From the IMG/VR virus record IMGVR_UViG_2617270939_000005: a DNA stretch of 11,968 bases. The stretch is one strand, 5' to 3'. Made by a program: the position numbers and the translations under genes. The notes under the pieces are model-generated. The model saw nothing but the letters and a program-made list of their open reading frames with translations, was not told where the DNA came from and ran no database searches. Shown here piece by piece: positions 1 to 11,968 of this stretch (position 1 is its first letter; each line of letters opens with the position of its first letter). The stretch is from a virus. Its lineage: Duplodnaviria; Heunggongvirae; Uroviricota; Caudoviricetes.

Positions 1-327
1 CTATGTCACGATGAACTGCGGCGTAAGAAAATCAGCGCGCTTATCCCTCCCCGAAAAGGTGCGGGTTACTGGCCCGGTGAATATGCAGACCGTAACCGTG
101 CAGTGGCTAATCAGCGAATGACCGGGAGTAATGCGCGGTGGAAATGGACAACAGATTACAACCGTCGCTCGATAGCGGAAACGGCGATGTACCGGGTAAA
201 ACAGCTGTTCGGGGGTTCACTGACGCTGCGTGACTACGATGGTCAGGTTGCAGAGGCTATGGCCCTGGTACGAGCGCTGAACAAAATGACGAAAGCAGGT
301 ATGCCTGAAAGCGTGCGTATTGCCTGA
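1..327 (+). CDS. IS5-family (IS903-type) transposase, C-terminal fragment (5' end outside window)
   Basis: Open frame from position 1 to TGA at 325-327; the last ~108 residues match the IS903 transposase C-terminus as recalled. The ORF track's 103..327 is the in-frame Met-started sub-portion. Confidence 0.85.
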   Translation, partial: LCHDELRRKKISALIPPRKGAGYWPGEYADRNRAVANQRMTGSNARWKWTTDYNRRSIAETAMYRVKQLFGGSLTLRDYDGQVAEAMALVRALNKMTKAGMPESVRIA

Positions 328-365
328 AAACACAACCCGCTACGGGGGAGACTTACCCGAAATCT

Positions 366-383
366 GATTTATTCAACAAAGCC
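366..383. repeat. IS903-type 18-bp terminal inverted repeat (right end)
   Basis: GATTTATTCAACAAAGCC read directly; lies ~40 bp downstream of the transposase stop, as expected for this IS. Confidence 0.7.
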
Positions 384-501
384 GTGTTTTCTGTTAATGT
401 TAACAACCCTTGAATTTCGTCTTTGGTATAGTGGCTCTTTATTTCATTTTTTAATTTGGCTGAGTGAATCAGAAGACGATAATTAGGGTACTTATCTGGA
501 T

Positions 502-651
502 TTAACGATAAATAACTTTTATCTGTTGCTGCCCCGTGGAATTAAGAATGTTAAATACAGATTCACTCGTCACTTCTGCCCCTGTCGCCTGGCATGTGCC
601 GCACGAAAATATACCAGCGAGCAGAAGAGTTAATGCAGATTTCCCTTTCAT
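502..651 (-). CDS. Hypothetical small exported protein (about 49 aa from the MKGK start)
   Basis: The track ORF 502..693 begins with GTG; the internal ATG at 649-651 gives MKGKSALTLLLAGIFSCGTCQATGAEV..., with a positively charged N-terminus and hydrophobic stretch resembling a signal peptide. Only a weak GGAA Shine-Dalgarno-like element precedes it. Short and unsupported by any homology I can recall. Confidence 0.3.
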   Translation of the reverse strand: MKGKSALTLLLAGIFSCGTCQATGAEVTSESVFNILNSTGQQQIKVIYR

Positions 652-884
652 AAAATATTCCATCAATCGTTTGTTAAAAGCGTAGATAACCACTTATTTA
701 ACAACTTGAAAATAAGGTGTTTTACCTGGGTTGTTACAAAAGGATTGCATTGCGTAAACGCTTTTTATTTACAACAAAATGGGGAAATATTACGGCGATT
801 GCGAAAAGTCTGAAGCGATTGAATTAAGATAATATAGAAAATCAGATACAGCAAAAATGGCAGATTGATGAGGTGAAGATAAAT

Positions 885-912
885 TGGAGCGGGCGAAGGG
901 AATCGAACCCTC
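885..912 (-). repeat. 3'-terminal 28-nt fragment of tRNA-Gly (CCC-anticodon, glyU-like): T-arm, acceptor 3' strand and CCA. Attachment-site direct repeat, not an intact tRNA gene
   Basis: Reverse complement of 885-912 is GAGGGTTCGATTCCCTTCGCCCGCTCCA. It has a TPsiC-loop (GGTTCGATTCC), an acceptor 3' strand CGCCCGC and CCA, matching the 3' end of enterobacterial tRNA-Gly(CCC) as I recall it. Similarity to a tRNA body stops at 912, so the 5' two-thirds of the tRNA are absent here. Confidence 0.7.
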
Positions 913-1000
913 TTTGCTAACCCTATGAATTGTGAACCAAAATAAGTAATCGCGGTACTTATCCCGGTAGTTGGTAGCGGTAGATTACAAGGTAATTACC

Positions 1001-2221
1001 ATGCCAATCAAGAAGACTTCTTATCTTTATGCAAACAAAGATGGGATATTCATCTTTCAAATCTATATTCCGGTCTACATGCGCCACCTCTGGAACGGGC
1101 GGCGCTCGCTCAAGAAATCGACAGGCACACGGGACATCATGCAAGCTCGCATTTTCCGTGACCAATATTTATTAGAGTTCCGTAAGCTACAGCTCATGAT
1201 GAAACCGGATAACCCCATTACCCGGATTCATTCCGCTGTAACAGATCTTCACTTGCTGGCGGGGGTATCCAGCAGCATTACCACACCCGCAACTATTCCA
1301 GCAGAGCGGGGAAAACCAGCATCACCAAAATTGACAGATGTCAGTAAAGAATATGCAGAGCAATACAAAGATCGGCGCTCTTATTCCACGCTGAGTAAAT
1401 CAGTTCGCGCTGTATCGGCATTTACTAATTCAATAAAACGCCCAACCATTACAATAAATGGAATCGGGCGGCGGCTCGTCTCTGACTTTCTGGAAGCGAA
1501 CCAAGATAAGTTTTCCCGCCAGACGCTGCAAAACTGGTTAACCTGCTTAGGGACGCTGTATGACTTCGCCCGGCGTAAATATGACAATATCGCCCCTGAT
1601 AATCCCTTTCACGGCCACAATCTGGAAGCCCGCCAGACGAACGAAAGTTATCAACCTTTTGAACTACACCAGCTACAGGCATTAATAAAAGAGGCAGGTA
1701 GCGAGATACGAGACGTAATCATAATCGGTTTGTATTCCGGTATGCGTCTCGACGAAATCGCCAGCATCAAACGAGTTGAGATTATCAAAGTTGAAGGGGT
1801 ACGCTGCTTCTACGTCAGCAAATCTAAAACTAAAGCGGGTGTAAGGCACGTCCCCATACACTCGCTGTTAATCAGCATCGTTGATAAATACCTTGCGCAG
1901 AACAACGGTGAATACCTGCTCCCCCAATCGAACAAGATTAAACGTGCCGACGGTAAGCGTGGCCCGTGGTACTCGCAGGCATTTACACGGCTACGCCGTC
2001 GCGTGCTGTCAGCGGCTACAGATCGCCAATGCTTCCACTCCCTGCGTGGTCACTTTATTACTTGCTTAGACAGAGCAGGAGTACCAGAACAGCGCATAGG
2101 GGCAATAACCGGGCATACCGAACAAAAAGCTAAAACGGAAGCTTTCAGGACATATAGCAAGGGAGCAGGGATGAAAGAACTATGGGAGTATGTGGAGTTG
2201 GTCAGTTATCCGTGTTTATAA
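1001..2221 (+). CDS. int: Tyrosine site-specific integrase (phage-type), 406 aa from the ATG at 1001
   Basis: The track ORF 971..2221 starts at TTG; the ATG at 1001 is preceded by AAGG at 988-991. The C-terminal catalytic region carries the tyrosine-recombinase signature: GLYSGMRLDEI (Arg), SKSKTKAGVRHVPI (Lys), HSLRGHF (His-x-x-Arg), ITGHTE (His) and FRTYSKG (Tyr). Sits directly beside the tRNA-derived att repeat. Confidence 0.9.
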   Translation: MPIKKTSYLYANKDGIFIFQIYIPVYMRHLWNGRRSLKKSTGTRDIMQARIFRDQYLLEFRKLQLMMKPDNPITRIHSAVTDLHLLAGVSSSITTPATIPAERGKPASPKLTDVSKEYAEQYKDRRSYSTLSKSVRAVSAFTNSIKRPTITINGIGRRLVSDFLEANQDKFSRQTLQNWLTCLGTLYDFARRKYDNIAPDNPFHGHNLEARQTNESYQPFELHQLQALIKEAGSEIRDVIIIGLYSGMRLDEIASIKRVEIIKVEGVRCFYVSKSKTKAGVRHVPIHSLLISIVDKYLAQNNGEYLLPQSNKIKRADGKRGPWYSQAFTRLRRRVLSAATDRQCFHSLRGHFITCLDRAGVPEQRIGAITGHTEQKAKTEAFRTYSKGAGMKELWEYVELVSYPCL

Positions 2222-2223
2222 AA

Positions 2224-2247
2224 AAGGCGCTATAGCGCCTTTCTTTT
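2224..2247. terminator. Bidirectional rho-independent terminator between convergent genes
   Basis: AAAGGCGC-TATA-GCGCCTTT hairpin (core stem GGCGC/GCGCC at 2226-2230 and 2235-2239) flanked by AAAAA on the left and TTTCTTTT on the right. Lies between the integrase stop (2219-2221) and the stop of the convergent minus-strand gene (2246-2248). Confidence 0.6.
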
Positions 2248-2620
2248 AAACATCAAAGATGACATCACCATGATACGCGTTAAACTGCGGATTCCGCATG
2301 ATGGTGATCACTTGCTGAACTACCCACTTTGCACCGATATCAAGTTCATGCTCTATAGCGCACGGTATAGCAATACCAGATTTCTGACACTTGATAGTGA
2401 AGGAAAATCCCTCATCTTTGCCTAGAATTGTCTGCAAGTGTTGTCCAATGAAATTTGTAAAAATCACTCTCAACTCAGCTAACGTGATTGGAGGTTTATT
2501 ACGCGGATCATTAAGTCTATCAACAGCAAAATGAAATGACATCTTTAGCTTGGCTCTATCTTCTTCCAAGATATCGTTAATATCTGCAACTAAATCATCA
2601 ATCTGCTGTTGAGTTATCAT
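2246..2620 (-). CDS. Hypothetical protein, 124 aa, second gene of low-GC two-gene cassette
   Basis: ATG at 2618-2620 overlaps the upstream gene's TGA (ATGA overlap, translational coupling). Acidic protein with no motif I recognise. Sampled 60-nt blocks in the cassette give roughly 37-42% G+C, against ~50-53% in the neighbouring operon. Confidence 0.6.
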   Translation of the reverse strand: MITQQQIDDLVADINDILEEDRAKLKMSFHFAVDRLNDPRNKPPITLAELRVIFTNFIGQHLQTILGKDEGFSFTIKCQKSGIAIPCAIEHELDIGAKWVVQQVITIMRNPQFNAYHGDVIFDV

Positions 2621-2826
2621 ATGTGTGCAGCCGTGATCTCAGCTAATTTCTTGTTCAACTCTTCATCGTTTGAAGCTGTGATGGTGCCTACAAATTCAGT
2701 GCGTGATAAAGTACCAGCACGCACATCGAATTCGTAGTTGTCAAACGAATCAACGACGACAAACGCCTTGGTTGCTGGGTTAAAAAACGATGCACAATTT
2801 TGGTTTGTACGCATATCAAAGTTCAT
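2617..2826 (-). CDS. Hypothetical protein, 69 aa, first gene of low-GC two-gene cassette
   Basis: ATG at 2824-2826 preceded by a strong AGGAGG Shine-Dalgarno (reverse complement of CCTCCT at 2831-2836). Acidic small protein, no recognisable motif. Confidence 0.6.
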   Translation of the reverse strand: MNFDMRTNQNCASFFNPATKAFVVVDSFDNYEFDVRAGTLSRTEFVGTITASNDEELNKKLAEITAAHI

Positions 2827-3027
2827 ATTATCCTCCTACCCCTTCAAGGGAGATGTAGGAACGAAGTATTCTCAAGTTGAAGCTCAGTTTGGAGACATAT
2901 TAGGAAACTGTTTTATGCTCAGCCTACGCAATCTACGTCAATCCGTCAAGAATTGTTTTAAATATAGGCAAGTAACAAGGCAGCCACAACAACACATAAC
3001 CGAATGAAAATAAAAGAAATAATCTCA

Positions 3028-3465
3028 TCACGCATGTTGTCTTGGATAAATAACGCCCAACCCCTTGTATTGTCGGCGGTAGGCAGGTAGCATGCTTAAC
3101 ATGCTACCTCGTGAGAGTCCGCACAAATTTCCCACATAATAACCACCTTCCGCTGCATTGGCCGAACGATGAACCACAGCGCGCACACGTCCAGTTCGGT
3201 GACAGTGATCCAATACAGCAGACGCGAGGCGTAGCGGCTTAGCTGTCACCGCGCAGCGTCGGTATTGATAATTCCACAGGAAGACACGGACAGCGGCCAC
3301 ATCAGCGCGGCGCAACTCCAGCCGTCCTGAACCATTCAACAGGAAGTGATACACATCATCGAACGCAGCAGAATTTTTAATGCGTTCCGCTAGCGGCATG
3401 TTGCCGAGATATTCCAGATAGCCTCGCATCGCTTTTCTTAGTAGTTGGTCTGTCCGTGTAACCAT
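3028..3465 (-). CDS. Hypothetical protein, 145 aa, last gene of the structural-type operon
   Basis: ATG at 3463-3465 with GGAGG 9 nt upstream; overlaps the preceding gene by 28 nt. Function unknown. Confidence 0.55.
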   Translation of the reverse strand: MVTRTDQLLRKAMRGYLEYLGNMPLAERIKNSAAFDDVYHFLLNGSGRLELRRADVAAVRVFLWNYQYRRCAVTAKPLRLASAVLDHCHRTGRVRAVVHRSANAAEGGYYVGNLCGLSRGSMLSMLPAYRRQYKGLGVIYPRQHA

Positions 3466-3737
3466 GATTCAAAGCCTCCACTGTCAGATGCAGCCCGTTT
3501 GCAGGCTTCGTATTCTTCGCGCTGGCGTTGGCATACCAGAGCATAAAGCTCGGCGGCCATCGCATTAACACGTTCGTCACTGATACCATTGCGGCGCATC
3601 AGCCCCAGCAGCTTACGAAATTTAGCTTCAAGCTCAGGCTCTCCGGTATCCATTACCCACTGTTTCAGGTCAGCGAGTGCGCCAGTCATTGGTGGCGGCT
3701 CGATGTACCGCCACCTTAATTTAATCGTGGTTATCAT
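3438..3737 (-). CDS. Hypothetical protein, 99 aa (start revised to the first ATG)
   Basis: The track ORF 3438..3785 begins with TTG. The first ATG at 3735-3737 has GAGGA 8 nt upstream and gives MITTIKLRWRYIEPPP.... Overlaps the upstream gene's end (3721) by 17 nt. Confidence 0.5.
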   Translation of the reverse strand: MITTIKLRWRYIEPPPMTGALADLKQWVMDTGEPELEAKFRKLLGLMRRNGISDERVNAMAAELYALVCQRQREEYEACKRAASDSGGFESWLHGQTNY

Positions 3738-4146
3738 TTTCTTTATCCTCTCTGTAAGCCGGGTGCATTGCCCGGTATTGCTCAATGGTCAAACCCTCGC
3801 TGGCCGCTGCAAACCGTTCCTTTTGCTTACCCGCCAATCGCAAGGCGCTGTCTCTCCAGCAGAGCAGAAAGAAGATGGTCAGCACCTGCTTACTCAAGCC
3901 ATCCAGAAGATCACCAAGCCCTTGCTCCAGAAGACAGGCACGCCATGCAGCGGCGTGCTCAGTCATAGCACCTACTATCGGGACAGGTGCTCCGAGCATT
4001 GTCGCAAGCTGACTCATAACACTGTTAGCATCGCCCGGATGCAGCCGTGGAATAGTCATGCGGCCAGCCTGCGCCAACAGTTCAGCGTACCGCTGGCGGC
4101 GCGGGTCATCATCTGCCAGCGCTCTAATCGGCTTTTCATCAGCCAT
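3721..4146 (-). CDS. Hypothetical protein, 141 aa; possible small terminase subunit by position only
   Basis: ATG at 4144-4146 with GGAGG 9 nt upstream. Sits immediately downstream of the HNH endonuclease, the position usually held by terS in HK97-like packaging modules. No sequence motif confirms this; it is a context inference. Confidence 0.55.
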   Translation of the reverse strand: MADEKPIRALADDDPRRQRYAELLAQAGRMTIPRLHPGDANSVMSQLATMLGAPVPIVGAMTEHAAAWRACLLEQGLGDLLDGLSKQVLTIFFLLCWRDSALRLAGKQKERFAAASEGLTIEQYRAMHPAYREDKENDNHD

Positions 4147-4164
4147 TAATGGAACCTCCGAGGA

Positions 4165-4692
4165 TTAGGCAGCCTGCAATAAATCGGCTGGCGTTGACGG
4201 ATGGTATCTGGCTTTAGCTTTCAGGTACGCAGCACGCGCCGCCGCTTCGGTAGTGAATAAGCCGAGGTGATGGCGAACACCACCAACGCGAATGTAAGCC
4301 TCCCATCTGCCAGAGCAGGCATGGTGGCTATAACCCTTGGCTTTGCGGTAATTGTGCTGGTTCTCTTGTGGCGTAACCGTGCGGAGATTGATAAGGCGGT
4401 TGTCATCGCGTACCGCGTTGATATGGTCGATTTGCATCCCGGCAGGGATACCGTCATTAGCAATGATGAAGGCGACACGGTGGGCGTATAGCGCATGAGA
4501 TTTGCCATTGATGCGGACAGATACGCGCCTATATCCGGCGCTGTCCGTTACCGTGTCGGCCAGTTCCCCGGCTTTAGCGTAAATCCGCTTGTTGGCTCCG
4601 ATCCGGTCTACTGCATGGAACAGGCGGCCAGTCTTCGCATCGTACCGAAACAAAGAGCGCAACAGCTCCGGGGCATAAGCATCAATATTCAT
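4165..4692 (-). CDS. HNH endonuclease with AP2-type DNA-binding domain (phage packaging-associated HNH)
   Basis: HNH motif IDHINAVRDDNRLINLRTVTPQENQHN (His...Asn...Asn/His spacing typical of HNH_3) and a C-terminal AP2-like segment GRWEAYIRVGGVRHHLGLFTTEAAARAAY. ATG at 4690-4692 with AAGGGG upstream. Confidence 0.85.
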   Translation of the reverse strand: MNIDAYAPELLRSLFRYDAKTGRLFHAVDRIGANKRIYAKAGELADTVTDSAGYRRVSVRINGKSHALYAHRVAFIIANDGIPAGMQIDHINAVRDDNRLINLRTVTPQENQHNYRKAKGYSHHACSGRWEAYIRVGGVRHHLGLFTTEAAARAAYLKAKARYHPSTPADLLQAA

Positions 4693-4708
4693 GGCTCGGC
4701 CCCTTTTG

Positions 4709-5704
4709 TTATGCAGCTTGTCGGAAATTTATAACGCAGTCAGGGCGGCGCAGCCCAACATTGAACAGGCGATATGAGTCCATCACCATTGTCATTTCGC
4801 GTTCATCATCCCACTGGCGATTGATAACGCTCTGCGCTTCGACTGTCACAAGTACAGACGCAGGCCGGAACAGCGTCGCCCGTGTCAGCGCTTCCCCTGC
4901 GGTCACATCATAATCAGCGCCCAGTTCATGCGCGGTAATGGCTTCCTGCGGGTAACTGTTCAGCTCAATAACTCGCACCCCAGCGACATAGCCAACGCGA
5001 CGCCATGCGTAATCATTGCCACTATCCCGGCTGTAACGGACGTTCATCAACTTCTTATGTTCCATCAGGATGCTGAACCAAGCTGGGTCGATGAGAAGGC
5101 ACAGCTCCGCCACCGGAATATCTTTTTCAGTTAGGAATCGATTAACAGCAGCTTTAATAGCGTGAACCAGTTCGTTAGCCGCATCCTCTTCGCTCCCCGT
5201 TGTCAGGTCGAGCGAGACAACATTATCCGTCAGCGGGTTAAACGTTGGTTGCAACGTAGGCGGCGGTACAAAGTCAGTCGCTTTGATTAGCTGGATAGTG
5301 TGCGCTTCGTCGTAGAACTTTGCATGGGCTGTCCCCATGTTGCGGCTCAGCTCTGCGCGAAAGGTGGGCGCTGTCCAGTCGTCTTGATAGTCAATCGGGA
5401 TGCGGATATAGCTCAGCGTATCCACAGAGATAATCAGCTTGTCCGACTTAACGGCGGTAGGCTCCAGCGATTGCCCTGCGGTTCTGCCCTTCACCTCCAG
5501 ATCTCCGCTCAGGCGGTCTACACGATACTGATTACTGTTTTTCAGCGGCTTGTATGTGCTCAGCCCCTCGGCGAGAAACACGCTCTTTGCCTCAAGGCGG
5601 GTCTGAACGTCCCGGTCATACGCTTCAATGTGAATGTCGTTGTCAGCATCTACACCGCCCCAGTGCGGGCGGAATTGGTCAGGGGTATAAACATTGTCAG
5701 TCAT
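4709..5704 (-). CDS. Putative major capsid protein (lambda gpE-like family, tentative), 331 aa
   Basis: ATG at 5702-5704 with GGGAG 9 nt upstream. Size and two segments (LLIDPAWFSIL and the C-terminal W-DDEREMTMVMDS...RRPDCVINF) loosely resemble lambda E-type capsid proteins as I remember them. The resemblance is from memory and not verified by alignment. Confidence 0.5.
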   Translation of the reverse strand: MTDNVYTPDQFRPHWGGVDADNDIHIEAYDRDVQTRLEAKSVFLAEGLSTYKPLKNSNQYRVDRLSGDLEVKGRTAGQSLEPTAVKSDKLIISVDTLSYIRIPIDYQDDWTAPTFRAELSRNMGTAHAKFYDEAHTIQLIKATDFVPPPTLQPTFNPLTDNVVSLDLTTGSEEDAANELVHAIKAAVNRFLTEKDIPVAELCLLIDPAWFSILMEHKKLMNVRYSRDSGNDYAWRRVGYVAGVRVIELNSYPQEAITAHELGADYDVTAGEALTRATLFRPASVLVTVEAQSVINRQWDDEREMTMVMDSYRLFNVGLRRPDCVINFRQAA

Positions 5705-5772
5705 AGAAATAGCTCCCGCGCCAGCGTTAGCCAGCGCGATTTATGGAAAAGGGGAAAAGAGAATGGGATGAA

Positions 5773-6120
5773 TCAGGCAGCAGCTTTTTCAGCCGCGATC
5801 TCAAGAATCAGGCCGATAAGCGCGAAGGCAGGCCAATGGGGATTAAGCTCGTGCAGGTGCGCAACGCCCCCACCAAAAGCATCGCGCATATCAGCACCAG
5901 AGATGCCCGCGCGTTTGGCCGCCCGGCGCAGCAATCGCAGCTCGGAGCCGGGAACATACGCCGAGGGCATACGCACGCCGAAGCGTGAGGCGAGCCGCCG
6001 CCAGTGCGCTTCGTCAGCAAAGTCCTGCTTAAGCTGGCTGGCGTTGGCTTTCCAGTGTTCAATCCTCGCGCTACGGGCAGCCCTAGCCGCTGCCACGTTT
6101 TCAGGTGTCAGTAAGGTCAT
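5773..6120 (-). CDS. Hypothetical protein, 115 aa
   Basis: ATG at 6118-6120 and stop at 5773-5775. Arg/Ala-rich, predicted helical, with only a weak ribosome-binding site. Lies in high-GC DNA where antisense ORFs are common, but it fills the gap between two well-supported genes on the same strand. Confidence 0.5.
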   Translation of the reverse strand: MTLLTPENVAAARAARSARIEHWKANASQLKQDFADEAHWRRLASRFGVRMPSAYVPGSELRLLRRAAKRAGISGADMRDAFGGGVAHLHELNPHWPAFALIGLILEIAAEKAAA

Positions 6121-6279
6121 TGTCAGATCTCAATGCAAAGTGGGTTTATGTGTGGTGTTTGAGAGGTAATTTCGCGTTTTACAGGTGCAGGTATACGAAT
6201 GTACATCTGGCGATGTACAACGCGATTCAGGCTCTAAAACGTAAGGTTAAGACGTGGGGAAGACAGGACAGGCGATTGC

Positions 6280-7806
6280 TTAACGGCCAGCGCGTTTGCC
6301 AGCGGAGCGCTGCGCAACCAGAGCGCGGTATTGATCGTCGTACTGGCGATGGCCGGGGCCATACCCTGATTGCTGCGCCCACTGCGAAAGCTGATCATAC
6401 GCTGCAATAAACTCAGCATGAGACATACCAACAGGTTGCGAGGCAGGCTGGCCGTATGGGTTCCCCTGTGATGGGACATAACCAGTCGCAGTGCCTGCGA
6501 CCATACGCTCTTGCAGATAATGAACCGCCCGCTGCATCTGCGCAGGGTCGCCAGACATAACCATCCGTTCAAGGGTTGATTGCGTCCCGGCGTCGAGCGT
6601 GCCAGCGTACTGCAACATCGCGTCAACTGTCCCCTGCCCTAGCTGGCTTTCGACAGACTGGTGAAACTGCCCCATCAGCCCATGAAGTTCAGGAGTCAAC
6701 TCAACAGTAGTGCCATCCTGTAATTGCAGCGTGTCGCCCACTTGCGCAGCAACATCAATCTGCTGGTCTTGCTGGTTGGCAAAGTTACTTTCGTTCCAGC
6801 TTTGATTAATGTTCGCTGGCTGCGTTTTCAGGAAATCAGCATCAGGTGTTGTCTGGTCGAATCTGCTAGCGCCGTTGTCAGCGCCTACAGGTGCGGCCAT
6901 GTACGGCGATTGCTGCGGCGCAGTATCAGCGCCCGAAAGGTACGGATTAACATTCTGGTCAGCCAGCACATCACTACCACGGGAGAAGATCGCATCAGCA
7001 ACAGACAACTGCCCCGGCCTCCACTCCAGCCCATCGGGTGGCAACAGGCTAACGCGTGCGTTTCGGTCACAGCGAACCAGCGGGCGAAACTCATAAGAGG
7101 CTGTATTCAGTGACGGCACAGACGGCGACACTGCCAAGCCGTTTGGGTCACAATGATGATTTGTACTGTTAAATTTATCCTCGGTAGGTTTCGACTCTCC
7201 ACACCACAATTGACGAAACTCCGCTGAGTCCCCGTAGCGTTTGAAATCTGAATTGCGCATCGCTTCCAGTTTATTCATGCCCCTGTTGATGCGGTGTATA
7301 GTCTTCTCATCACAAATCAGGAACTCGCGGCAGGCTTTGAGAAAAGCATTCTGCCCGGTTGTCGATGCCGAAACGGCGTGCTCGCGCGGTTTCAATGCGG
7401 CATCATCTACGCGAACACCGGGAAAATCAGGCGGCAGCGGGTCAGCATACCGAGCAGGCTTCTTGTTGAGCCACATTTCTATCTCAGCGCGTCGGCAATG
7501 AATTGCGTCACCGGGCTGGATGACTTGCCGCAACCCCGTGTCAGAGCGCTGTTTTTGCTTCTTCGGTTGAACACCATGCAGCGCTCGCCATTCCCGCAGG
7601 GTCATAGCGGAGCCATCAGCATTGTAATAAAACTCTTCGGTCTTCGTGTTGTATGCCGCCTTAACGGGTTTATGCTTTATCGGGCATATCTTGGAACGCC
7701 GAATAACAATCCCGTCAGCGACCATTTGCTGTACATCTGCGTTTGCGGTATTGAGCGGGTCAGCGTCGGCAGCCTGCGCAAGCAAACGGCGTAGGTTCGT
7801 TGGCAT
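6280..7806 (-). CDS. Hypothetical protein, 508 aa: N-terminal region with HTH-like segments, C-terminal half Gln/Gly/Ala-rich low complexity
   Basis: ATG at 7804-7806 with GGAG 8 nt upstream; first gene of the minus-strand operon. Segments AMTLREWRALHGV and QVIQPGDAIHCRRAEIEMWL look like DNA-binding (AlpA/HTH-like) motifs. The C-terminal ~200 residues are Q/G/A/P-rich. No Walker A or protease motif seen. Confidence 0.7.
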   Translation of the reverse strand: MPTNLRRLLAQAADADPLNTANADVQQMVADGIVIRRSKICPIKHKPVKAAYNTKTEEFYYNADGSAMTLREWRALHGVQPKKQKQRSDTGLRQVIQPGDAIHCRRAEIEMWLNKKPARYADPLPPDFPGVRVDDAALKPREHAVSASTTGQNAFLKACREFLICDEKTIHRINRGMNKLEAMRNSDFKRYGDSAEFRQLWCGESKPTEDKFNSTNHHCDPNGLAVSPSVPSLNTASYEFRPLVRCDRNARVSLLPPDGLEWRPGQLSVADAIFSRGSDVLADQNVNPYLSGADTAPQQSPYMAAPVGADNGASRFDQTTPDADFLKTQPANINQSWNESNFANQQDQQIDVAAQVGDTLQLQDGTTVELTPELHGLMGQFHQSVESQLGQGTVDAMLQYAGTLDAGTQSTLERMVMSGDPAQMQRAVHYLQERMVAGTATGYVPSQGNPYGQPASQPVGMSHAEFIAAYDQLSQWAQQSGYGPGHRQYDDQYRALVAQRSAGKRAGR

Positions 7807-7880
7807 GGTGAAATCTCCAAAATTAAGGTGAGTTTAGAACGAGGCGCAGGACGGCAGCGCCGAGCTGCCCGTAGAGAGAA

Positions 7881-7947
7881 TTTCATGTCAGCAGTGACGT
7901 TGAATGTTCTGTCCCTCTTTAGTAGTGACTTTCATGTAGGTCACTAC
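7881..7947. promoter_or_regulatory. Operator-like repeat cluster upstream of the minus-strand operon
   Basis: Perfect 8-bp inverted repeat GTAGTGAC (7922-7929) and GTCACTAC (7940-7947) with a 10-bp spacer TTTCATGTAG. The motifs TTTCATGT and AGTGAC both recur at 7881-7898. Located 75-140 bp upstream of the 508-aa gene start. Confidence 0.35.
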
Positions 7948-8210
7948 GTATGCACAAGCGAGTGGTGTTCGTTTTGCCACAGTAGAAACTCTAATTTGAT
8001 TATTTTTTAATCAACACCTTTGTAAGCCTTGCCCTGTCTGACTTGATGAATGATTTGCTGATAACTTTCAGTAGGTTTGTTGGGATGCTGGGATGTAAGG
8101 GGTTATAAGCGGCATTGTGAGTACCATATCCCAATATAGTACCGTACCACTACTCTATCCCCGCCGCGTTGACTGCCTGGCAAGCACGGTTGCGTGGAGG
8201 GCCGAGCATC

Positions 8211-8260
8211 ACAGCGGGCGAAGGCCGGGAATGAGCCAAAGGCGATGGAGCGGGCTGGAG
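8211..8260. repeat. Degenerate copies of the tRNA-Gly 3' end (relic att-type direct repeats)
   Basis: AGCGGGCGAAGG at 8213-8224 is identical to 888-899 of the tRNA fragment, and TGGAGCGGGC at 8246-8255 is identical to 885-894; both are in the same orientation as the 885-912 repeat. The surrounding 8200-8300 is purine-rich with recurring GAGC...AGCG units. Confidence 0.45.
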
Positions 8261-8629
8261 CATAGCGAGAAGCGCAGCCAGTGTAGAGCGAAAAGCGATA
8301 ACACTGATTAGGAGAAGGGATGAAAGGGAAGAACCCTTTTCTGTACATGTATTTTAAATGCAACTTTAAAGGTAAAACGAAGGTGTTGCCCTGCTTCAAA
8401 TCTAGCTGAGTGATTGGACAACACAGCCTTTGATCCCTTCCCCTGCCCCATCCCTCGAATTGTTCAGTGATAAATCACATTCACAATCTGATCTTGATAC
8501 TCATCGTCTGGCACGGCTAAAGCCCCGCCATCTCTTCATATCAAGAGCCGCAAGTAATACGGAAATACATTATAAATCATACCATTACGAGATTAGGCAT
8601 AACATAAATATCTGATATCAATACAAAAG

Positions 8630-8700
8630 CTGTAGGCCATCCATCACCCACAGCCCAGTAACGGCCAGTGCTGGCATCTCATCAGACTGTAGGTCATCAC
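8630..8700. repeat. Imperfect direct repeat CTGTAGG(C/T)CATC...CAC at the 3' end of the recombinase gene
   Basis: CTGTAGGCCATCCATCAC at 8630-8647 and CTGTAGGTCATCAC at 8687-8700; the second copy overlaps the recombinase stop codon at 8697-8699. Significance uncertain. Confidence 0.35.
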
Positions 8701-9329
8701 TCTGTAACGCTGGCGGACAGCTCACGTTTGATACGGTAGAACGTTGCCCGGCTTATCCCGGCAGCTTTCATGATGTGCTCTGGTTTATTCCCAACGGTAA
8801 GCATAGCGCGGACAGTTTCACGGGCGCTCTCATCCTTAGACTTCCCGTTATATTTCCCCTCGGCTTTGGCACGCTTGATGCCCTGCGCTTGGCGTGCTCT
8901 GCGTGTCTCGTAGTCCACTCGTGCCATCGTAGCGAGGATATCAATCAGCATTGCGTTAACAGCTCTCAGGATGCCCTCTGTAAGCTCTGACGCCGTATCG
9001 TTCAGTAGTTGCCATGAGGTTGGCAGGTCAACGGCAACGATCACCAGTCCCTTATCCTGAATCCTCTGTTTCAGTGTCGCCCATTCCTTTTGCGTAAGGC
9101 GGCTTAGCCTGTCGATGCTCTCGACAAGCAAGACCTCTCCGGCCTGCGCATCATCCAGCAAGCGCATTAGTTCAGGACGCGCCAGCCTCGCACCGCTGGC
9201 GTTCTCGATGTACTCCGCCCGTACAGGCCAGCCCCGATCACTGGCGAACTCTCGCAGCAAGCCCAGCGCCCGGTCTGCGTGTTGCTCTGATGTACTGGCG
9301 CGGCAATAGATAAGCGCATTGTGTGCCAT
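8697..9329 (-). CDS. Small serine recombinase (resolvase/invertase family), 210 aa
   Basis: N-terminal catalytic motif YCRASTSEQ (the Y-x-R-x-S-T-x-x-Q serine recombinase signature), the VESIDRLSR motif and a C-terminal HTH (AAGISRATFYRIKRE). ATG at 9327-9329 with GGGGGA upstream. Confidence 0.85.
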   Translation of the reverse strand: MAHNALIYCRASTSEQHADRALGLLREFASDRGWPVRAEYIENASGARLARPELMRLLDDAQAGEVLLVESIDRLSRLTQKEWATLKQRIQDKGLVIVAVDLPTSWQLLNDTASELTEGILRAVNAMLIDILATMARVDYETRRARQAQGIKRAKAEGKYNGKSKDESARETVRAMLTVGNKPEHIMKAAGISRATFYRIKRELSASVTE

Positions 9330-10046
9330 GCTTCCCCCTAAGTCTCAATGAAATATCACAGCAAGACCTATAAGAGATCACATCAATAATGTGTAGTCAA
9401 TAGAGTTTTATAGATAGTCAAATGAGACAGTGTGTCTATGTCTTTATCAGGTATACCCGAAAGAGACTGGCACCGCCCCACAGCAGCATTCCCCGGCACA
9501 TCCAGCGAACACAGCGTAGAGCGCACGCAGCAGATCAGCACGGCACCGCCACGATCTCGAAATCACAAAGGCATTGAATCACACATTGGAAGCACAGAAC
9601 GCAGCACAGAGCGATACAGATCGTTTTAGAGGGATGTACAGATACACAGTGAAAGGCAGATGATCGCAGCACTCGTCCCACACGGTTATTCAGCAACAGC
9701 AATCAGCCAGCATCTCGCTCAGTAGCACGCTCCTGTAATGCTTGTCTCGGATGAGCAAAATCTTAGGGTTTCTCAGCGACCCCTGACGCGCGGGCACGCA
9801 CATGCACACGGGGGCGCGGGCGAGCTATAGAGTTGAGGGAGGGGCAACCATAAGCGTGCAATTTTCAAGCTGGGACTTTTAACAGTGGGATTGTGGGGCT
9901 GTTTTGCATTCAGAGAGTGAGGCTGTGGGGGAGCCCTCCTTGAACCAAATAATGCGAAACTGATCATTCTTCCACGTAGCTTAGGCCACTTTGCATGGAT
10001 AATTAGCACCAAACACAGCAGCCAGTTTAAGAGAAATGCGCGACAT

Positions 10047-10265
10047 CTACCGTCTGCGTTTACCCCAGCGCTGCATTATGGCTCTGTGTGCTTCATCCGC
10101 TGACCATTCAATAGGTACAACAACGTGTACAGGCATTTCATCGCCAGAGGGGGCACCACGTAAATGGACTCTATACCCTAGTTTATTAAGTTCTACCTCG
10201 GACATCGGTGATATAACCTCGCCGCTATGGCTGCCGCCAACAAACTCAGCTTTAAAATCCAACAT
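10047..10265 (-). CDS. Hypothetical protein, 72 aa (doubtful)
   Basis: ATG at 10263-10265 lies directly downstream of a G9 run on the minus strand (C9 at 10267-10275 on plus) that could serve as a Shine-Dalgarno-like element. Its composition is more protein-like than the overlapping plus-strand ORF 10036..10359 (Ser/Thr/Pro-rich). No homology recognised. Confidence 0.35.
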   Translation of the reverse strand: MLDFKAEFVGGSHSGEVISPMSEVELNKLGYRVHLRGAPSGDEMPVHVVVPIEWSADEAHRAIMQRWGKRRR

Positions 10266-10266
10266 G

Positions 10267-10275
10267 CCCCCCCCC
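10267..10275. repeat. Homopolymeric C9 tract (G9 on minus strand)
   Basis: Nine consecutive C read directly at 10267-10275, immediately 5' of the 72-aa minus-strand ORF start and inside the alternative plus-strand ORF. Confidence 0.9.
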
Positions 10276-10355
10276 TACACACTAACAAGAATCATTGAAG
10301 GTGTATCACCCAGCAACTACGCTGGGCAGAACATCACCTCGGACTATCAATCAAC

Positions 10356-10814
10356 TTAGTATCGCTTTGTGTCTCGTAGTATTACAGACAGTAACCACCA
10401 CCATTGGCGTTTGATCCAACAAACATCACTGAACATCTTGCCGTCAGATGTTTTGATATAAACCCCGCCACGATGATGCACTTTGTTGTGATGAGCCTTA
10501 TTTATGAATGGCACGTTCAAGACCATTTCGTCTCGTGCTTTCAATCTTTTTGGCAGCATCGGTGTGATCATGTTCTCGTCCGAATATTCGTCGGATAACA
10601 TTCTAAGGCGTCCACTGGCTGTTACCACACCGGCTGCACTCAACGTTACATCGTGTGCGCTTATGTTCGAAACGTATATCCTGTCCTCGTGCTGATCACA
10701 TCCGAGATAAAGCCTTAGCGATGTTCTGGATTTTAGTAATTGAAATACGGACAAAGCAAAACCCGCCCACGCCGCGATCCCTGTCCAGTTATCTGTTTGG
10801 GTGATCCAAGTCAT
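10356..10814 (-). CDS. Hypothetical single-pass membrane protein, ~152 aa
   Basis: The track ORF starts with TTG at 10815-10817; the ATG at 10812-10814 overlaps the upstream gene's TGA (TGATG), indicating coupling. The N-terminal stretch WTGIAAWAGFALSVFQLL is a probable transmembrane helix, followed by a soluble domain with a His/Lys-rich segment (KAHHNKVHHRGG). Confidence 0.6.
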   Translation of the reverse strand: MTWITQTDNWTGIAAWAGFALSVFQLLKSRTSLRLYLGCDQHEDRIYVSNISAHDVTLSAAGVVTASGRLRMLSDEYSDENMITPMLPKRLKARDEMVLNVPFINKAHHNKVHHRGGVYIKTSDGKMFSDVCWIKRQWWWLLSVILRDTKRY

Positions 10815-11041
10815 CAAGGCTGCATCCCCTTCGACATAAGATACTTAACGATCCCTTCTCGTTGCCTATTACTCAGCTGAAAACATTTGTCTAGTTGAGA
10901 TAAAACCTGCTCGACATCATCTGCCAAGATGGCACTAGCTGCACGAGCGGGGAGATCTCCCTGAATTTTGATAGTGAAATACCCTGAAGATATTGATAGC
11001 TTCAAAAAACAACCTGCTGAGAACTCGTAACTCTCGCTCAT
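10814..11041 (-). CDS. Hypothetical protein, 75 aa, first gene of the minus-strand operon
   Basis: ATG at 11039-11041 with AGAGG about 6 nt upstream; stop overlaps the start of the membrane protein gene. No motif recognised. Confidence 0.55.
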   Translation of the reverse strand: MSESYEFSAGCFLKLSISSGYFTIKIQGDLPARAASAILADDVEQVLSQLDKCFQLSNRQREGIVKYLMSKGMQP

Positions 11042-11113
11042 AACCGCCTCTGTTGCCAGTTTTTCAGTAAACTGACAGTATATTCCTGAACCTTTATTAC
11101 ATCACGCGCACAC

Positions 11114-11125
11114 AAAAAAAAAAAA
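11114..11125. repeat. Homopolymeric A12 tract in a divergent intergenic region
   Basis: Twelve consecutive A read directly at 11114-11125, between the divergently oriented 75-aa gene (start 11041) and 259-aa gene (start 11189). Confidence 0.9.
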
Positions 11126-11188
11126 TGACCGACTCAGTTCGCAAATTTCTGGATAATCTATCCATACAATAATTATCAAGGATAAGTT

Positions 11189-11968
11189 ATGTCATCAGAT
11201 AACTTCGTGACATTTTGGCTTGCTAAAGTAGATCGGCCCTATTTTCTTGAACCTCACGAATTTTATGTTTCGGAAGCAAGACGGAGACTTTTGTCTCAGT
11301 TTGGGGATCTGACCCAAGAGGCGGAGGAGCGAGAGAAACAGTTTCTGGAGTATACCGCTGAGCATTTCAATCCTGATTTTGACGACCCAATGGCAGCCTA
11401 TGAGCAAGCATATGAGGAGGGTGTAAACTACGTCTGGTCACTTATTGAAATGCAAGAAACTGTTCTTTTGGCAGTAACTGCGGGTATGTATCACCAGTTC
11501 GATAAAAAGTTACGAGAAAAAACGATCAGAGAATTGTCTCATTGGTGTGATAAAGAGATCATTACACCAATGGTTTGGGATTTAAATTTTGATCAACTGT
11601 TGAAACTGCTCGAGTGGATCGGTCTCAAGATAGATGAAACTGATTATGGCGATAAGCTCAAAGCGTGCGCATTAGTCGTAAATGTGTACAAACATGGTGA
11701 TGGAAATTCTCACCGCCTCCTATCATCAACTCATCCAGAATATTACCCTCATCCTACTGGTATATGCGGCAGACATATCAATCCTACTCATGATGATCTG
11801 CATGTAACAGAAGAACAGTTTGTTGAATTTGCTGATGCAATAACAACATTTTGGAAAGCAATACCAGAATACTGCTATTACTCCGAACTGTCGGATGAGC
11901 CAGAGTGGTTAATTAAGCTTGTAAAAAAGAGCGAAAAGAAGTTAAGAAAAGGAAATACAAGGCCATAA
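11189..11968 (+). CDS. Hypothetical protein, 259 aa, AT-rich gene; contains an R-x5-H segment (HRLLSSTH) reminiscent of HEPN motifs
   Basis: ATG at 11189 with AAGGA 6 nt upstream; the TAA stop coincides with the window end (11966-11968). A sampled 60-nt block gives ~38% G+C. The HEPN suggestion rests on a single short motif and is speculative. Confidence 0.7.
   Translation: MSSDNFVTFWLAKVDRPYFLEPHEFYVSEARRRLLSQFGDLTQEAEEREKQFLEYTAEHFNPDFDDPMAAYEQAYEEGVNYVWSLIEMQETVLLAVTAGMYHQFDKKLREKTIRELSHWCDKEIITPMVWDLNFDQLLKLLEWIGLKIDETDYGDKLKACALVVNVYKHGDGNSHRLLSSTHPEYYPHPTGICGRHINPTHDDLHVTEEQFVEFADAITTFWKAIPEYCYYSELSDEPEWLIKLVKKSEKKLRKGNTRP

Follow-up and report, generated by a model that had tools for sequence, protein, structure and literature searches.

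Among the phage satellites described to date, the systems closest to the locus treated here are delimited by their gene content, and the SatelliteFinder definitions were used as the criteria for membership (PMC10085698). According to these, phage-inducible chromosomal islands (PICIs) carry an integrase, a regulator of the AlpA, Stl, or MerR type, a primase-replicase, a capsid-morphogenesis gene, and the small terminase gene terS, and typically no other phage-like structural genes. Capsid-forming PICIs (cfPICIs) possess at least nine of eleven core components, including the large terminase gene terL, a head-tail adaptor, a connector, a protease, an AlpA-type regulator, and a primase, and P4-like elements are defined by the seven core genes integrase, psu, delta, sid, alpA, epsilon, and alpha (PMC10085698). 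Here, we analyzed a stretch of 11,968 nucleotides (IMG/VR record IMGVR_UViG_2617270939_000005, referred to as the window throughout), which is Escherichia coli DNA of the glyU region. A preliminary description, made from the sequence alone, had proposed a compact phage satellite in this window and named a decayed prophage remnant as the alternative. We found that the element is a member of a family of conserved, tRNA-integrated elements of approximately 15 kb in Enterobacteriaceae, which is apparently undescribed. On balance, the comparisons favor the reading that this family consists of phage satellites of virulent Autographiviridae podophages (phiKMV-like, nearest to Bonnellvirus, approximately 42 kb), and that the window copy is a deletion derivative of such a satellite.

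The integrase end of the element is defined by two features:

885-912, minus strand: attL, an exact 28-nt copy of the 3' end of tRNA-Gly(CCC) (glyU).
1001-2221, plus strand: tyrosine integrase of 406 aa (PF00589, E=5.9e-10; phrog_1, E=9e-36).

Both had been recognized in the preliminary description, and both assignments hold. The repeat at 885-912 matches positions 28733-28760 of the sister genome NZ_LR536431 (locus L001) exactly, within an annotated tRNA-Gly, and ARAGORN detected no complete tRNA anywhere in the 11,968 nt. The window agrees with L001 at 100% identity over 1012-6965 and 6962-8193 and at 99.9% identity over 8743-11968, and L001 carries an intact tRNA-Gly 431 nt past the equivalent of the last base of the window, beside actS and xdhA. 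The first 28 nt of this intact gene are the repeat seen at 885-912. As glyU is located approximately 430 nt past the window end, the element does not stop at 8260, where the preliminary description had placed its right boundary. Judged by this alignment, it extends from position 913 to approximately 430 nt past the window end, which corresponds to a length of about 11.5 kb here instead of the 7 kb proposed earlier. The degenerate repeats at 8211-8260 were also considered as attR or as a glyU remnant and rejected, since they are part of a conserved non-coding block that is equally kept in copies integrated at leuX, and the real glyU lies beyond the window.

For the reconstruction of the unoccupied locus, the left flank through the repeat was joined to the remainder of glyU and actS. 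This predicted empty site was uninterrupted in 3,398 of the 5,426 complete E. coli genomes that were screened for the element, and the element is therefore a precise insertion. The matches listed were 100% identical over all 601 nt. Exact flanking repeats were found in intact relatives as well, with 30 nt around the 14.95-kb glyU copy of NCTC11023 and 31 nt around the 15.06-kb leuX copy of the enteropathogenic E. coli (EPEC) strain E2348/69. The true start of the integrase is the ATG at 1001, and its gene is situated at the end of the element distal to the tRNA gene, convergent with the operon. The type of integrase tracks the integration site, as the integrases of glyU copies and leuX copies are only 36% identical.

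With regards to distribution, the capsid gene of the element was found in 59 of the 5,426 genomes, always as a single chromosomal copy and including E2348/69. Capsids with 92-97% identity occur in Enterobacter, Kosakonia, Kluyvera, and Trabulsiella, and homologues of the core protein h141 extend the range to Cronobacter, Citrobacter, Klebsiella, and Phytobacter. Copies at two tRNA sites and in seven or more genera imply that the element is transferred horizontally with some efficiency. Intact copies measure 14.5-15 kb and reside at glyU or leuX. When the genes of the intact element were placed on 31 related loci, each core gene was recovered in 29 to 31 of them, and the gene order was the same in all 13 loci for which it was spelled out. 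Starting from tRNA-Leu(CAA) or tRNA-Gly(CCC), it comprises variable cargo, a serine recombinase, a non-coding gap of 1.3-2.2 kb, a helicase, h145, a terS-like gene, h58, HTH187, h79, a scaffold-like gene, a variable small gene, and, towards the integrase side, the capsid gene, HNH, h141, h99, endonuclease VII, variable cargo, and the integrase. The core genes are under purifying selection, with median pairwise dN/dS values of 0.05 (terS-like), 0.105 (capsid), 0.13 (helicase), 0.18 (h141), 0.20 (endonuclease VII), and 0.27 (h99).

The same order was observed in a second, more distant subfamily (L176/L177; GCA_031940645.1 and a Logan contig), in which protein identities to the window family drop to 28-59%: 59% for the capsid, 52% for the integrase, 46% for the scaffold, 44% for the terS-like protein, 43% for the helicase, and 28% for h141. 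This subfamily has three HNH genes, placed unlike the single HNH gene of the window family. Across all copies examined, the family is never part of a larger prophage. The comparison of the glyU locus across genomes suggested in the preliminary description accordingly yielded a discrete unit that is syntenic across genera and never sits in a complete prophage, which removes the scenario of a complete prophage that was simply deleted in this strain. Our literature search returned no description of the family; subscription journals lay outside this search, so an earlier description is possible.

Within the window, the body of the element is a minus-strand operon of nine tightly packed genes, running from 7806 down to 2246. 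Most of these genes have GGAG-type ribosome-binding sites, and two start/stop overlaps are present; the tight packing, strong ribosome-binding sites, and overlaps were correctly described before, with the gene number corrected here from seven to nine. In the order of transcription, the operon consists of a 508-aa open reading frame (ORF), h115, the capsid gene, the HNH_3 gene, h141, h99, the endonuclease VII-like gene, and two cargo genes. Listed by position, its features are:

2246-2826, minus strand: integrase-proximal variable slot with genes of 124 aa and 69 aa (phrog_14518 and phrog_14630, function unknown).
3028-3429, minus strand: endonuclease VII-like nuclease, core (PF02945, E=3e-6; phrog_423, E=2.9e-15).
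3438-3737, minus strand: core protein h99, present in 31/31 copies, with a 17-nt overlap with h141.
3721-4146, minus strand: core orphan h141, all-helical model.
4165-4692, minus strand: HNH_3 endonuclease (PF13392, E=1.1e-13).
4709-5704, minus strand: major capsid protein of 331 aa (phrog_267, E=2.8e-67).
5773-6120, minus strand: h115 (phrog_21723, function unknown, E=1.3e-52).
6280-6965, minus strand: scaffolding-protein homologue, the C-terminal half of the putative 508-aa chimera, its own start and ribosome-binding site gone.
6961-7806, minus strand: N-terminal 282 residues of the helicase, with the break before Walker A (GKT at 289) and DEAH (388).
6962-6965: deletion junction with GCCA microhomology.

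The evidence for a podophage connection was obtained in part by comparing profiles of the element proteins with all ORFs of 126 podophage loci. Five genes have podophage homologues, namely those for the capsid, the scaffold, the small terminase, endonuclease VII, and the homing HNH endonuclease. The capsid protein provides the clearest case. Its best phage matches reach 56-58% identity over 98% of its length and belong to the Bonnellvirus coliphages Lidtsur, forsur, and J8-65, and it is also close to the capsids of phages of Enterobacter, Kosakonia, Cronobacter, and Pantoea, all with genomes of 41-43 kb. The hosts of these Bonnellvirus-type phages (Escherichia, Enterobacter, Kosakonia, Cronobacter, and Pantoea) overlap with the hosts of the element. 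Against solved podophage capsids, the protein aligned over residues 1-324 with PDB 23sf_I (E=4.8e-78), and further matches were 8eld, 8vb0, and 9s9b. Since this homology covers the full length, the HK97 fold is established by homology, and we assign the protein to the Autographiviridae (T7/phiKMV-like) type. The preliminary description was right in naming it a probable capsid protein and wrong in calling it lambda-E-like.

The endonuclease VII profile matched 82 Autographiviridae ORFs at about 1e-10, and the HNH profile matched 63 podophage ORFs with E-values of up to 1e-36; in the phages, the eight strongest of these ORFs immediately precede the gene for the capsid. For the scaffold-like profile, 77 podophage matches at about 1.5e-4 were obtained, and the top ones occupy the place of the scaffold gene, right before that of the capsid. 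The scaffold-like protein also matches phrog_1018 (head scaffolding protein, E=5.4e-5), and its pairwise BLASTP alignment with the Lidtsur scaffold is collinear in the C-terminal part and ends in the same extreme C-terminal motif, with about half the length of the phage protein (228 vs 411 aa). The terS-like protein of 68 aa matches PF11123 (E=3e-4) and phrog_891 (E=4e-3) and shares 47% identity over 30 aa with the 101-aa terS product of Lidtsur (profile E=3.9e-4). Eight core proteins had no counterpart in the podophage regions examined, and neither the element nor its non-coding block showed DNA similarity to any sequenced phage. As a separate observation on scaffold composition, the scaffold gene of Lidtsur contains CAG/CCG-rich repeats (L003 22672-22820), likely encoding Q/P-rich repeats, and the N-terminal half of the scaffold-like protein of the element (window 6280-6965) is low in complexity and rich in Q, N, and P.

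The HNH endonuclease is additionally supported by phrog_99 (E=3.5e-48) and the PADLOC model 'HEase' (E=1.9e-8). Its former designation as HNH-AP2 holds for the HNH_3 domain, while the AP2-like C-terminus stays below the threshold (E=0.049). The combination of HNH_3 with AP2 is the pattern of free-standing homing endonucleases. Because it is of the HNH_3 type and its allele, position, and copy number differ between copies of the element, we read it as a probable mobile homing endonuclease tied to the capsid locus and not as a packaging partner of terS. Its neighbor h141, which the preliminary description had placed in the terS position to form an HNH-terS pair, is an orphan of 141 aa without a match in Pfam, PHROGs, or NCBIfam. 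The AlphaFold model (pLDDT 75) contains six helices and found no similar fold in PDB or BFVD, and an exhaustive profile search of 1.84 billion proteins returned 12 representatives. None of these searches supported h141 as a terS gene; the only terS-like gene of the family, with 68 aa, falls into the segment that was deleted from the window. The adjacent h99 had no family match, apart from a homologue with 39% identity in the L176 subfamily.

Compared with L001, the window is short by 2,898 bp (L001 20955-23852; blastn), and with these, h79, the gene for the 187-aa helix-turn-helix (HTH) protein, h58, the terS-like gene, and h145 were lost. The deletion also took residues 283-614 of a 614-aa RecQ-family helicase, which is intact in L001 at 22853-24697. 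In the remaining 508-aa ORF, residue 282 of the helicase is fused to residue 2 of the 228-aa scaffold-like protein. The ORF is best explained as a chimera made by the deletion, and not as a single native protein as assumed before; the low-complexity C-terminus that had been noted in it is real and represents the Q/N/P-rich half of the scaffold. As the break precedes both Walker A and DEAH, the helicase motor is lost in the window copy. The intact helicase matches PF00270/PF00271 and RecQ structures (E=7e-31 over residues 261-585), whereas its N-terminal domain has homologues only within the family, and its AlphaFold model failed (pLDDT 37).

The L001 sister copy has its own lesions. It lost attL and the start of the integrase gene to an IS1A insertion (14288-15128), and the conserved non-coding block together with the recombinase 3' end to a deletion of 549 bp at approximately 25080, with GTTGC microhomology. 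Both copies are therefore decaying, independently and recently, by different lesions. The window copy is almost certainly non-functional as a satellite, and, because five core genes and the helicase motor domains are lost, it is most likely no longer mobilisable. The earlier satellite proposal is supported for the family, with the copy on which it was based being disabled, and the alternative of a decayed remnant is partly right for this copy and not for the family.

Further genes characteristic of a complete phage were not found. In the window and in the annotated or gene-called relatives inspected, terL, portal, protease, tail, holin, and endolysin genes are absent, in agreement with the preliminary description, and neither the 31 related loci nor the L176/L177 subfamily contained remnants of RNA polymerase, DNA polymerase, portal, tail, or terL genes. 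The element is thus a discrete insertion with its own recombinase and att repeats and an incomplete set of virion and lysis genes, and the family carries homologues of capsid, scaffold, and terS genes that could subvert the morphogenesis and packaging of a helper, all of which are generic features of satellites. We prefer a satellite over a remnant because the unit is discrete, precisely inserted, horizontally spread, constant in size, and under purifying selection, and because its morphogenesis and packaging module derives from one phage family, other particle genes are absent, and the cargo is of the defence type.

In the proposed mechanism, infection by a helper podophage would lead to excision of the element by the integrase. 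Replication might then involve the helicase, with the non-coding block as the origin, both roles being guesses. The element's own capsid protein and the truncated scaffold would assemble on the portal of the helper into satellite-specific, probably small, capsids, and the terS homologue would redirect the large terminase of the helper to satellite DNA. Endonuclease VII would resolve branches in the DNA after replication, the DNA of the helper may be cut by the HNH homing endonuclease close to the helper capsid locus, and tails and lysis functions of the helper would finish and release the particles. The ratio of element to helper genome size is 0.35 (14.5-15 kb vs approximately 42 kb), which we take to be the ratio of the P4/P2 and SaPI1/80alpha pairs (T=4 vs T=7), and it therefore suggests small T=4 heads. 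We put forward only tentatively, as a possibility somewhat short of even, that intact members (for example those of E2348/69 and NCTC11023) are the first satellites of T7-like virulent podophages with a hijacking strategy between those of classical PICIs and cfPICIs, in which the satellite contributes its capsid protein, a shortened scaffold, and a mini small terminase, satellite-only (probably T=4) heads are built on the helper portal and filled by the helper large terminase, and infection is sensed via a cis element shared with the early region of the helper.

Several points weigh against a satellite of this kind. Five core genes are missing from the window copy, and the sister nearest to it has other inactivating lesions, so that this lineage is decaying. 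Capsids of sequenced phages reach at most 58% identity, which makes the helper a presumed one, and the scaffold and terS homologies are each weak individually. A recognisable master repressor, AlpA-type activator, or primase was not found, and the search for a repeated phage RNA polymerase promoter motif gave no convincing candidate in Lidtsur and none for the element. The screen for excised forms covered 80 metagenome loci as well as IMG/VR matches and Logan contigs; no circular or attP-junction contig appeared in the metagenome loci or IMG/VR matches, and the element-length Logan contigs end in the 31-nt repeat, as an assembly-graph break would give. Finally, T7-like phages degrade host DNA quickly, and a chromosomal element would have to outrun that.

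Alternatively, the family may be a mobile anti-phage defence island. The capsid, the short scaffold, and the mini-terS would then be dominant-negative decoys that disturb particle assembly and packaging in infecting podophages, the DNA of these phages would be cut by HNH and endonuclease VII, and spreading would occur by other means or only vertically. The helper-derived genes are indeed diverged (57% or less) or truncated (scaffold 228 vs 411 aa, terS 68 vs 101 aa), two nucleases are present, known defence genes (TIR, ThsB) are carried as cargo, and no packaged or excised form was found in virome or metagenome data. However, a decoy would not need a full-length capsid (dN/dS 0.1), a matching scaffold, a replication-type helicase, and an integrase, and neither the conserved size of about one-third of the helper genome nor the two tRNA sites and at least seven genera, which imply efficient horizontal transfer, would be explained. 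In addition, known satellites interfere with their helpers too, so that interference and transfer are compatible. The helicase at first glance adds to the defence explanation, since it matches the PADLOC model PDLC02858 'DpdF' over its full length with E=2.7e-268. A Dpd (7-deazaguanine DNA modification) system, in which DpdF is accompanied by DpdA, DpdB, DpdC, and further Dpd proteins, was nevertheless rejected, as the element contains no other Dpd protein, and the PADLOC model was probably built from the helicase family of the element itself. Taken together, we regard the defence island as unlikely.

A satellite of another, unsequenced helper, for example a temperate podophage, was considered as well. 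Here, a concatemer of approximately three units would be packaged into helper capsids of normal size, and no size redirection would take place. The closest phage capsids are only 57% identical, three lengths of 14.5-15 kb correspond to about one headful of 42-45 kb, and PICMIs and marine VEIMEs are packaged as concatemers. Such packaging, however, would leave the strong constraint on the element's own capsid and scaffold unexplained, and we judge this variant to be quite improbable. A last rival derives the family from a temperate T7-like phage that once integrated and was then domesticated or decayed, the remnant being inherited, spread by recombination, and without present function as a unit. 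In its favor, temperate, integrase-carrying Autographiviridae do exist (LUZ100 is one), and decay is ongoing in the window copy, with its deletion, and in the sister, with an IS1 insertion and another deletion. However, no trace of RNA polymerase, DNA polymerase, portal, tail, or terL remains in the 31 loci or in L176/L177, gene order and element size are fixed, purifying selection was seen for all core genes tested, eight core genes lack a counterpart in the podophage regions examined, and independent decay would leave heterogeneous remnants. The remnant has very little probability left and is strongly disfavored for the family, though not for the window copy.

The region upstream of the operon holds the candidates for cis-acting sites. 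Its features in the window are:

7999-8026, minus strand: sigma-70 promoter-like site, CTTACA-16-AATAAT, with only 9/12 consensus matches.
8130-8580, minus strand: conserved non-coding block of approximately 450 nt, between the recombinase terminator and the promoter-like site of the operon.
8627-8656, minus strand: intrinsic-terminator-like hairpin, 3' of the recombinase gene.
8697-9329, minus strand: small serine recombinase of 210 aa (PF00239, E=6.8e-25; HTH_7, E=6e-5; phrog_125).
9330-11968: tRNA-proximal variable cargo with ORFs on the minus strand (10356-10817, 10814-11041, 10047-10265) and the plus strand (11189-11968).

A non-coding stretch of approximately 900 nt separates the operon from the serine recombinase gene in the window. 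The number of sigma-70-like sites found upstream of the operon did not exceed the expectation from shuffled sequence. The conserved block within this stretch is present in 28 of the 31 copies and conserved at least as well as the coding genes. Its first 110 nt or so (approximately 8455-8555) form two hairpins and hardly vary, even in copies whose adjacent helicase has dropped to 68% identity. In the first stem, compensatory double substitutions affect three base pairs, and the operon-sense strand is favored by several G-U pairs that do not change. One example of this hairpin element is found at L004 21144-21324, in addition to 26 other loci. The second half of the block, which includes 8211-8260, is CGCT-rich and differs between copies by single-base indels, so it contains no conserved ORF. 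Neither an Rfam match at E≤1 nor a resemblance to phage DNA was detected for the block, which we consider a candidate origin, packaging signal, or regulatory RNA.

A possible link between element and phage regulation was found further along in this region in other copies. The 22-nt motif ATGAAAGTGTCTATAGTGATAT occurs in 11 copies, approximately 365-390 nt upstream of the helicase and on the strand opposite to the operon (L004 at 20561-20582, L115, L118, L002, L006, L091, L092, L094, L101, L116, and L122). An exact copy lies between genes in the early region at the left end of the Bonnellvirus-like phage contig L008 (1376-1397), where it follows TTGACTTAAA; approximately 3e-5 such matches are expected by chance. 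We assume that the layout of TTGACTTAAA and ATGAAAGTGTCTATAGTGATAT in the phage resembles the T7 A1 early promoter. As a lead, ATGAAAGTGTCTATAGTGATAT may be a regulatory site shared by element and phage; the variant of the helicase-upstream region in the window does not contain it. Independently, the 18-nt sequence GTCAGCAGTGACGTTGAA at window positions 7887-7904 (plus strand) has an exact match inside the capsid gene of the Bonnellvirus-like contig L009 (approximately 10789), which may be a coincidence with about 0.005 matches expected by chance for that search.

The variable parts of the element differ from copy to copy. The serine recombinase is of the resolvase/invertase type and keeps its position in 28 of 31 copies, with two allelic types that are approximately 26% identical. 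Between the scaffold and capsid genes lies another variable slot, which is filled by h115 in 13 of 31 copies and by a different gene of 137-157 aa in the others. The two slot genes at 2246-2826 were seen in L001, the sister with 100% identity, and in none of the other 30 related loci. No Pfam or PADLOC match was obtained for the tRNA-proximal cargo ORFs of the window, and the 259-aa ORF belongs to phrog_19541. In other copies, the integrase-proximal slot contains DUF3606, a ThsB-type TIR protein, and other genes, and the tRNA-proximal slot contains TIR, DUF3800, and DUF4145 genes. Loci with cargo of the anti-phage type include L095 (114-1058 and 11999-12613), L094 (1-381), and L002 (25490-26260). 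The placement of such cargo at the two variable ends is a trait shared with other satellites. Outside the element, the left flank (window 1-693) comprises the 3' end of an IS4-family (IS421-like) transposase gene (ORF 103-327) and, from position 384, the start of ygeQ (glycoside hydrolase family 15), truncated by the insertion sequence. The equivalent flank of NCTC11023 runs into the ETT2 type III secretion island.

To our knowledge, satellites of T7-like (Autographiviridae) phages have not been described. These phages are virulent, kill within minutes, bring their own RNA polymerase, and degrade host DNA, and a chromosomal parasite of them would need an unusual strategy for induction and escape. 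If the satellite reading is correct, an element with its own capsid and scaffold but with a portal, motor, core, and tail taken from the helper would stand midway between the remodellers of the P4/SaPI/PLE kind and the head-building cfPICIs, where no system had been placed so far. The family resides in clinically relevant Enterobacteriaceae, including the EPEC reference strain, together with anti-phage cargo, so that it could influence how podophage therapy turns out and carry defence genes from one genus to another. For annotation, the current satellite detectors, built on four family models, would probably overlook elements of this kind, and annotators may mislabel them as partial Dpd defence systems. 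The window copy itself illustrates a further pitfall, as it is a recent deletion derivative whose largest 'gene' appears to be an artefact of the deletion.

For better comparison, the element was finally set against the known systems. The defective Autographiviridae prophage does not describe it, given the absence of polymerase, portal, tail, and terL remnants, the uniform synteny, and the purifying selection. Of the P4-like components, only the integrase is present, and no profile matched any other. P4/P2 and SaPI1/80alpha resemble the system in tRNA or similar integration sites, defence cargo, and a size ratio of approximately 0.35; however, P4 and SaPI1 remodel the capsid protein of the helper via Sid or CpmAB and have no capsid protein of their own. 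Likewise, no AlpA/Stl/MerR regulator or primase-replicase of the PICI type was found with Pfam, PHROGs, and NCBIfam, and a full capsid and scaffold are present instead.

Satellites of virulent phages are represented by PLE of Vibrio cholerae and the PICMIs of Vibrionaceae (PMC10945586, PMC9410903, PMC10803314). PLE is comparable in its nucleases against the helper and its small capsids, and PLE and PICMIs share with the element the use of tyrosine or serine recombinases and the presumed response to infection rather than SOS. However, both have no gene homology to the element and differ in hosts and helpers. PLE acts through the external scaffold TcaP on the coat protein of its helper, and PICMIs are minimal (approximately 6 kb), with an integrase and few genes for replication and regulation but neither capsid nor capsid-remodelling genes (PMC10803314), unlike the 14.5-15-kb element with its capsid and scaffold genes.

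The cfPICIs (Alqurainy et al., 10.1101/2022.09.08.507074; PMC10085698) are similar in being chromosomal, integrase-bounded elements of 10-17 kb that are common in Enterobacteriaceae, with their own HK97-fold capsid, a small terminase, and HNH and with no tail or lysis genes. They differ in that an AlpA-type regulator, a primase, and all genes for the head and its packaging (terL, portal, protease, head-tail adaptor, and connector) are encoded. Of the 11 cfPICI components, the element has no more than 4 (integrase, capsid, HNH, and a weak terS-like gene), and its capsid is T7-like and accompanied by a scaffold instead of a protease, its helicase is RecQ-like, and its HNH is of the homing (HNH_3) type. 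In SaPIbov5, a cos-type SaPI, the satellite homologue Ccm of the helper capsid protein gives the capsid another size and shape, and the helper provides the portal, terminase, and tail (PMC8569155). That system belongs to a Gram-positive siphophage, and Ccm assembles jointly with the capsid protein of the helper. The element would contribute a scaffold and a terS homologue as well and presumably relies on a virulent podophage as its helper. By analogy, the element would work most like a cfPICI, with its own capsid, and like SaPIbov5, with its capsid homologue Ccm, and it is a member of none of the families compared.

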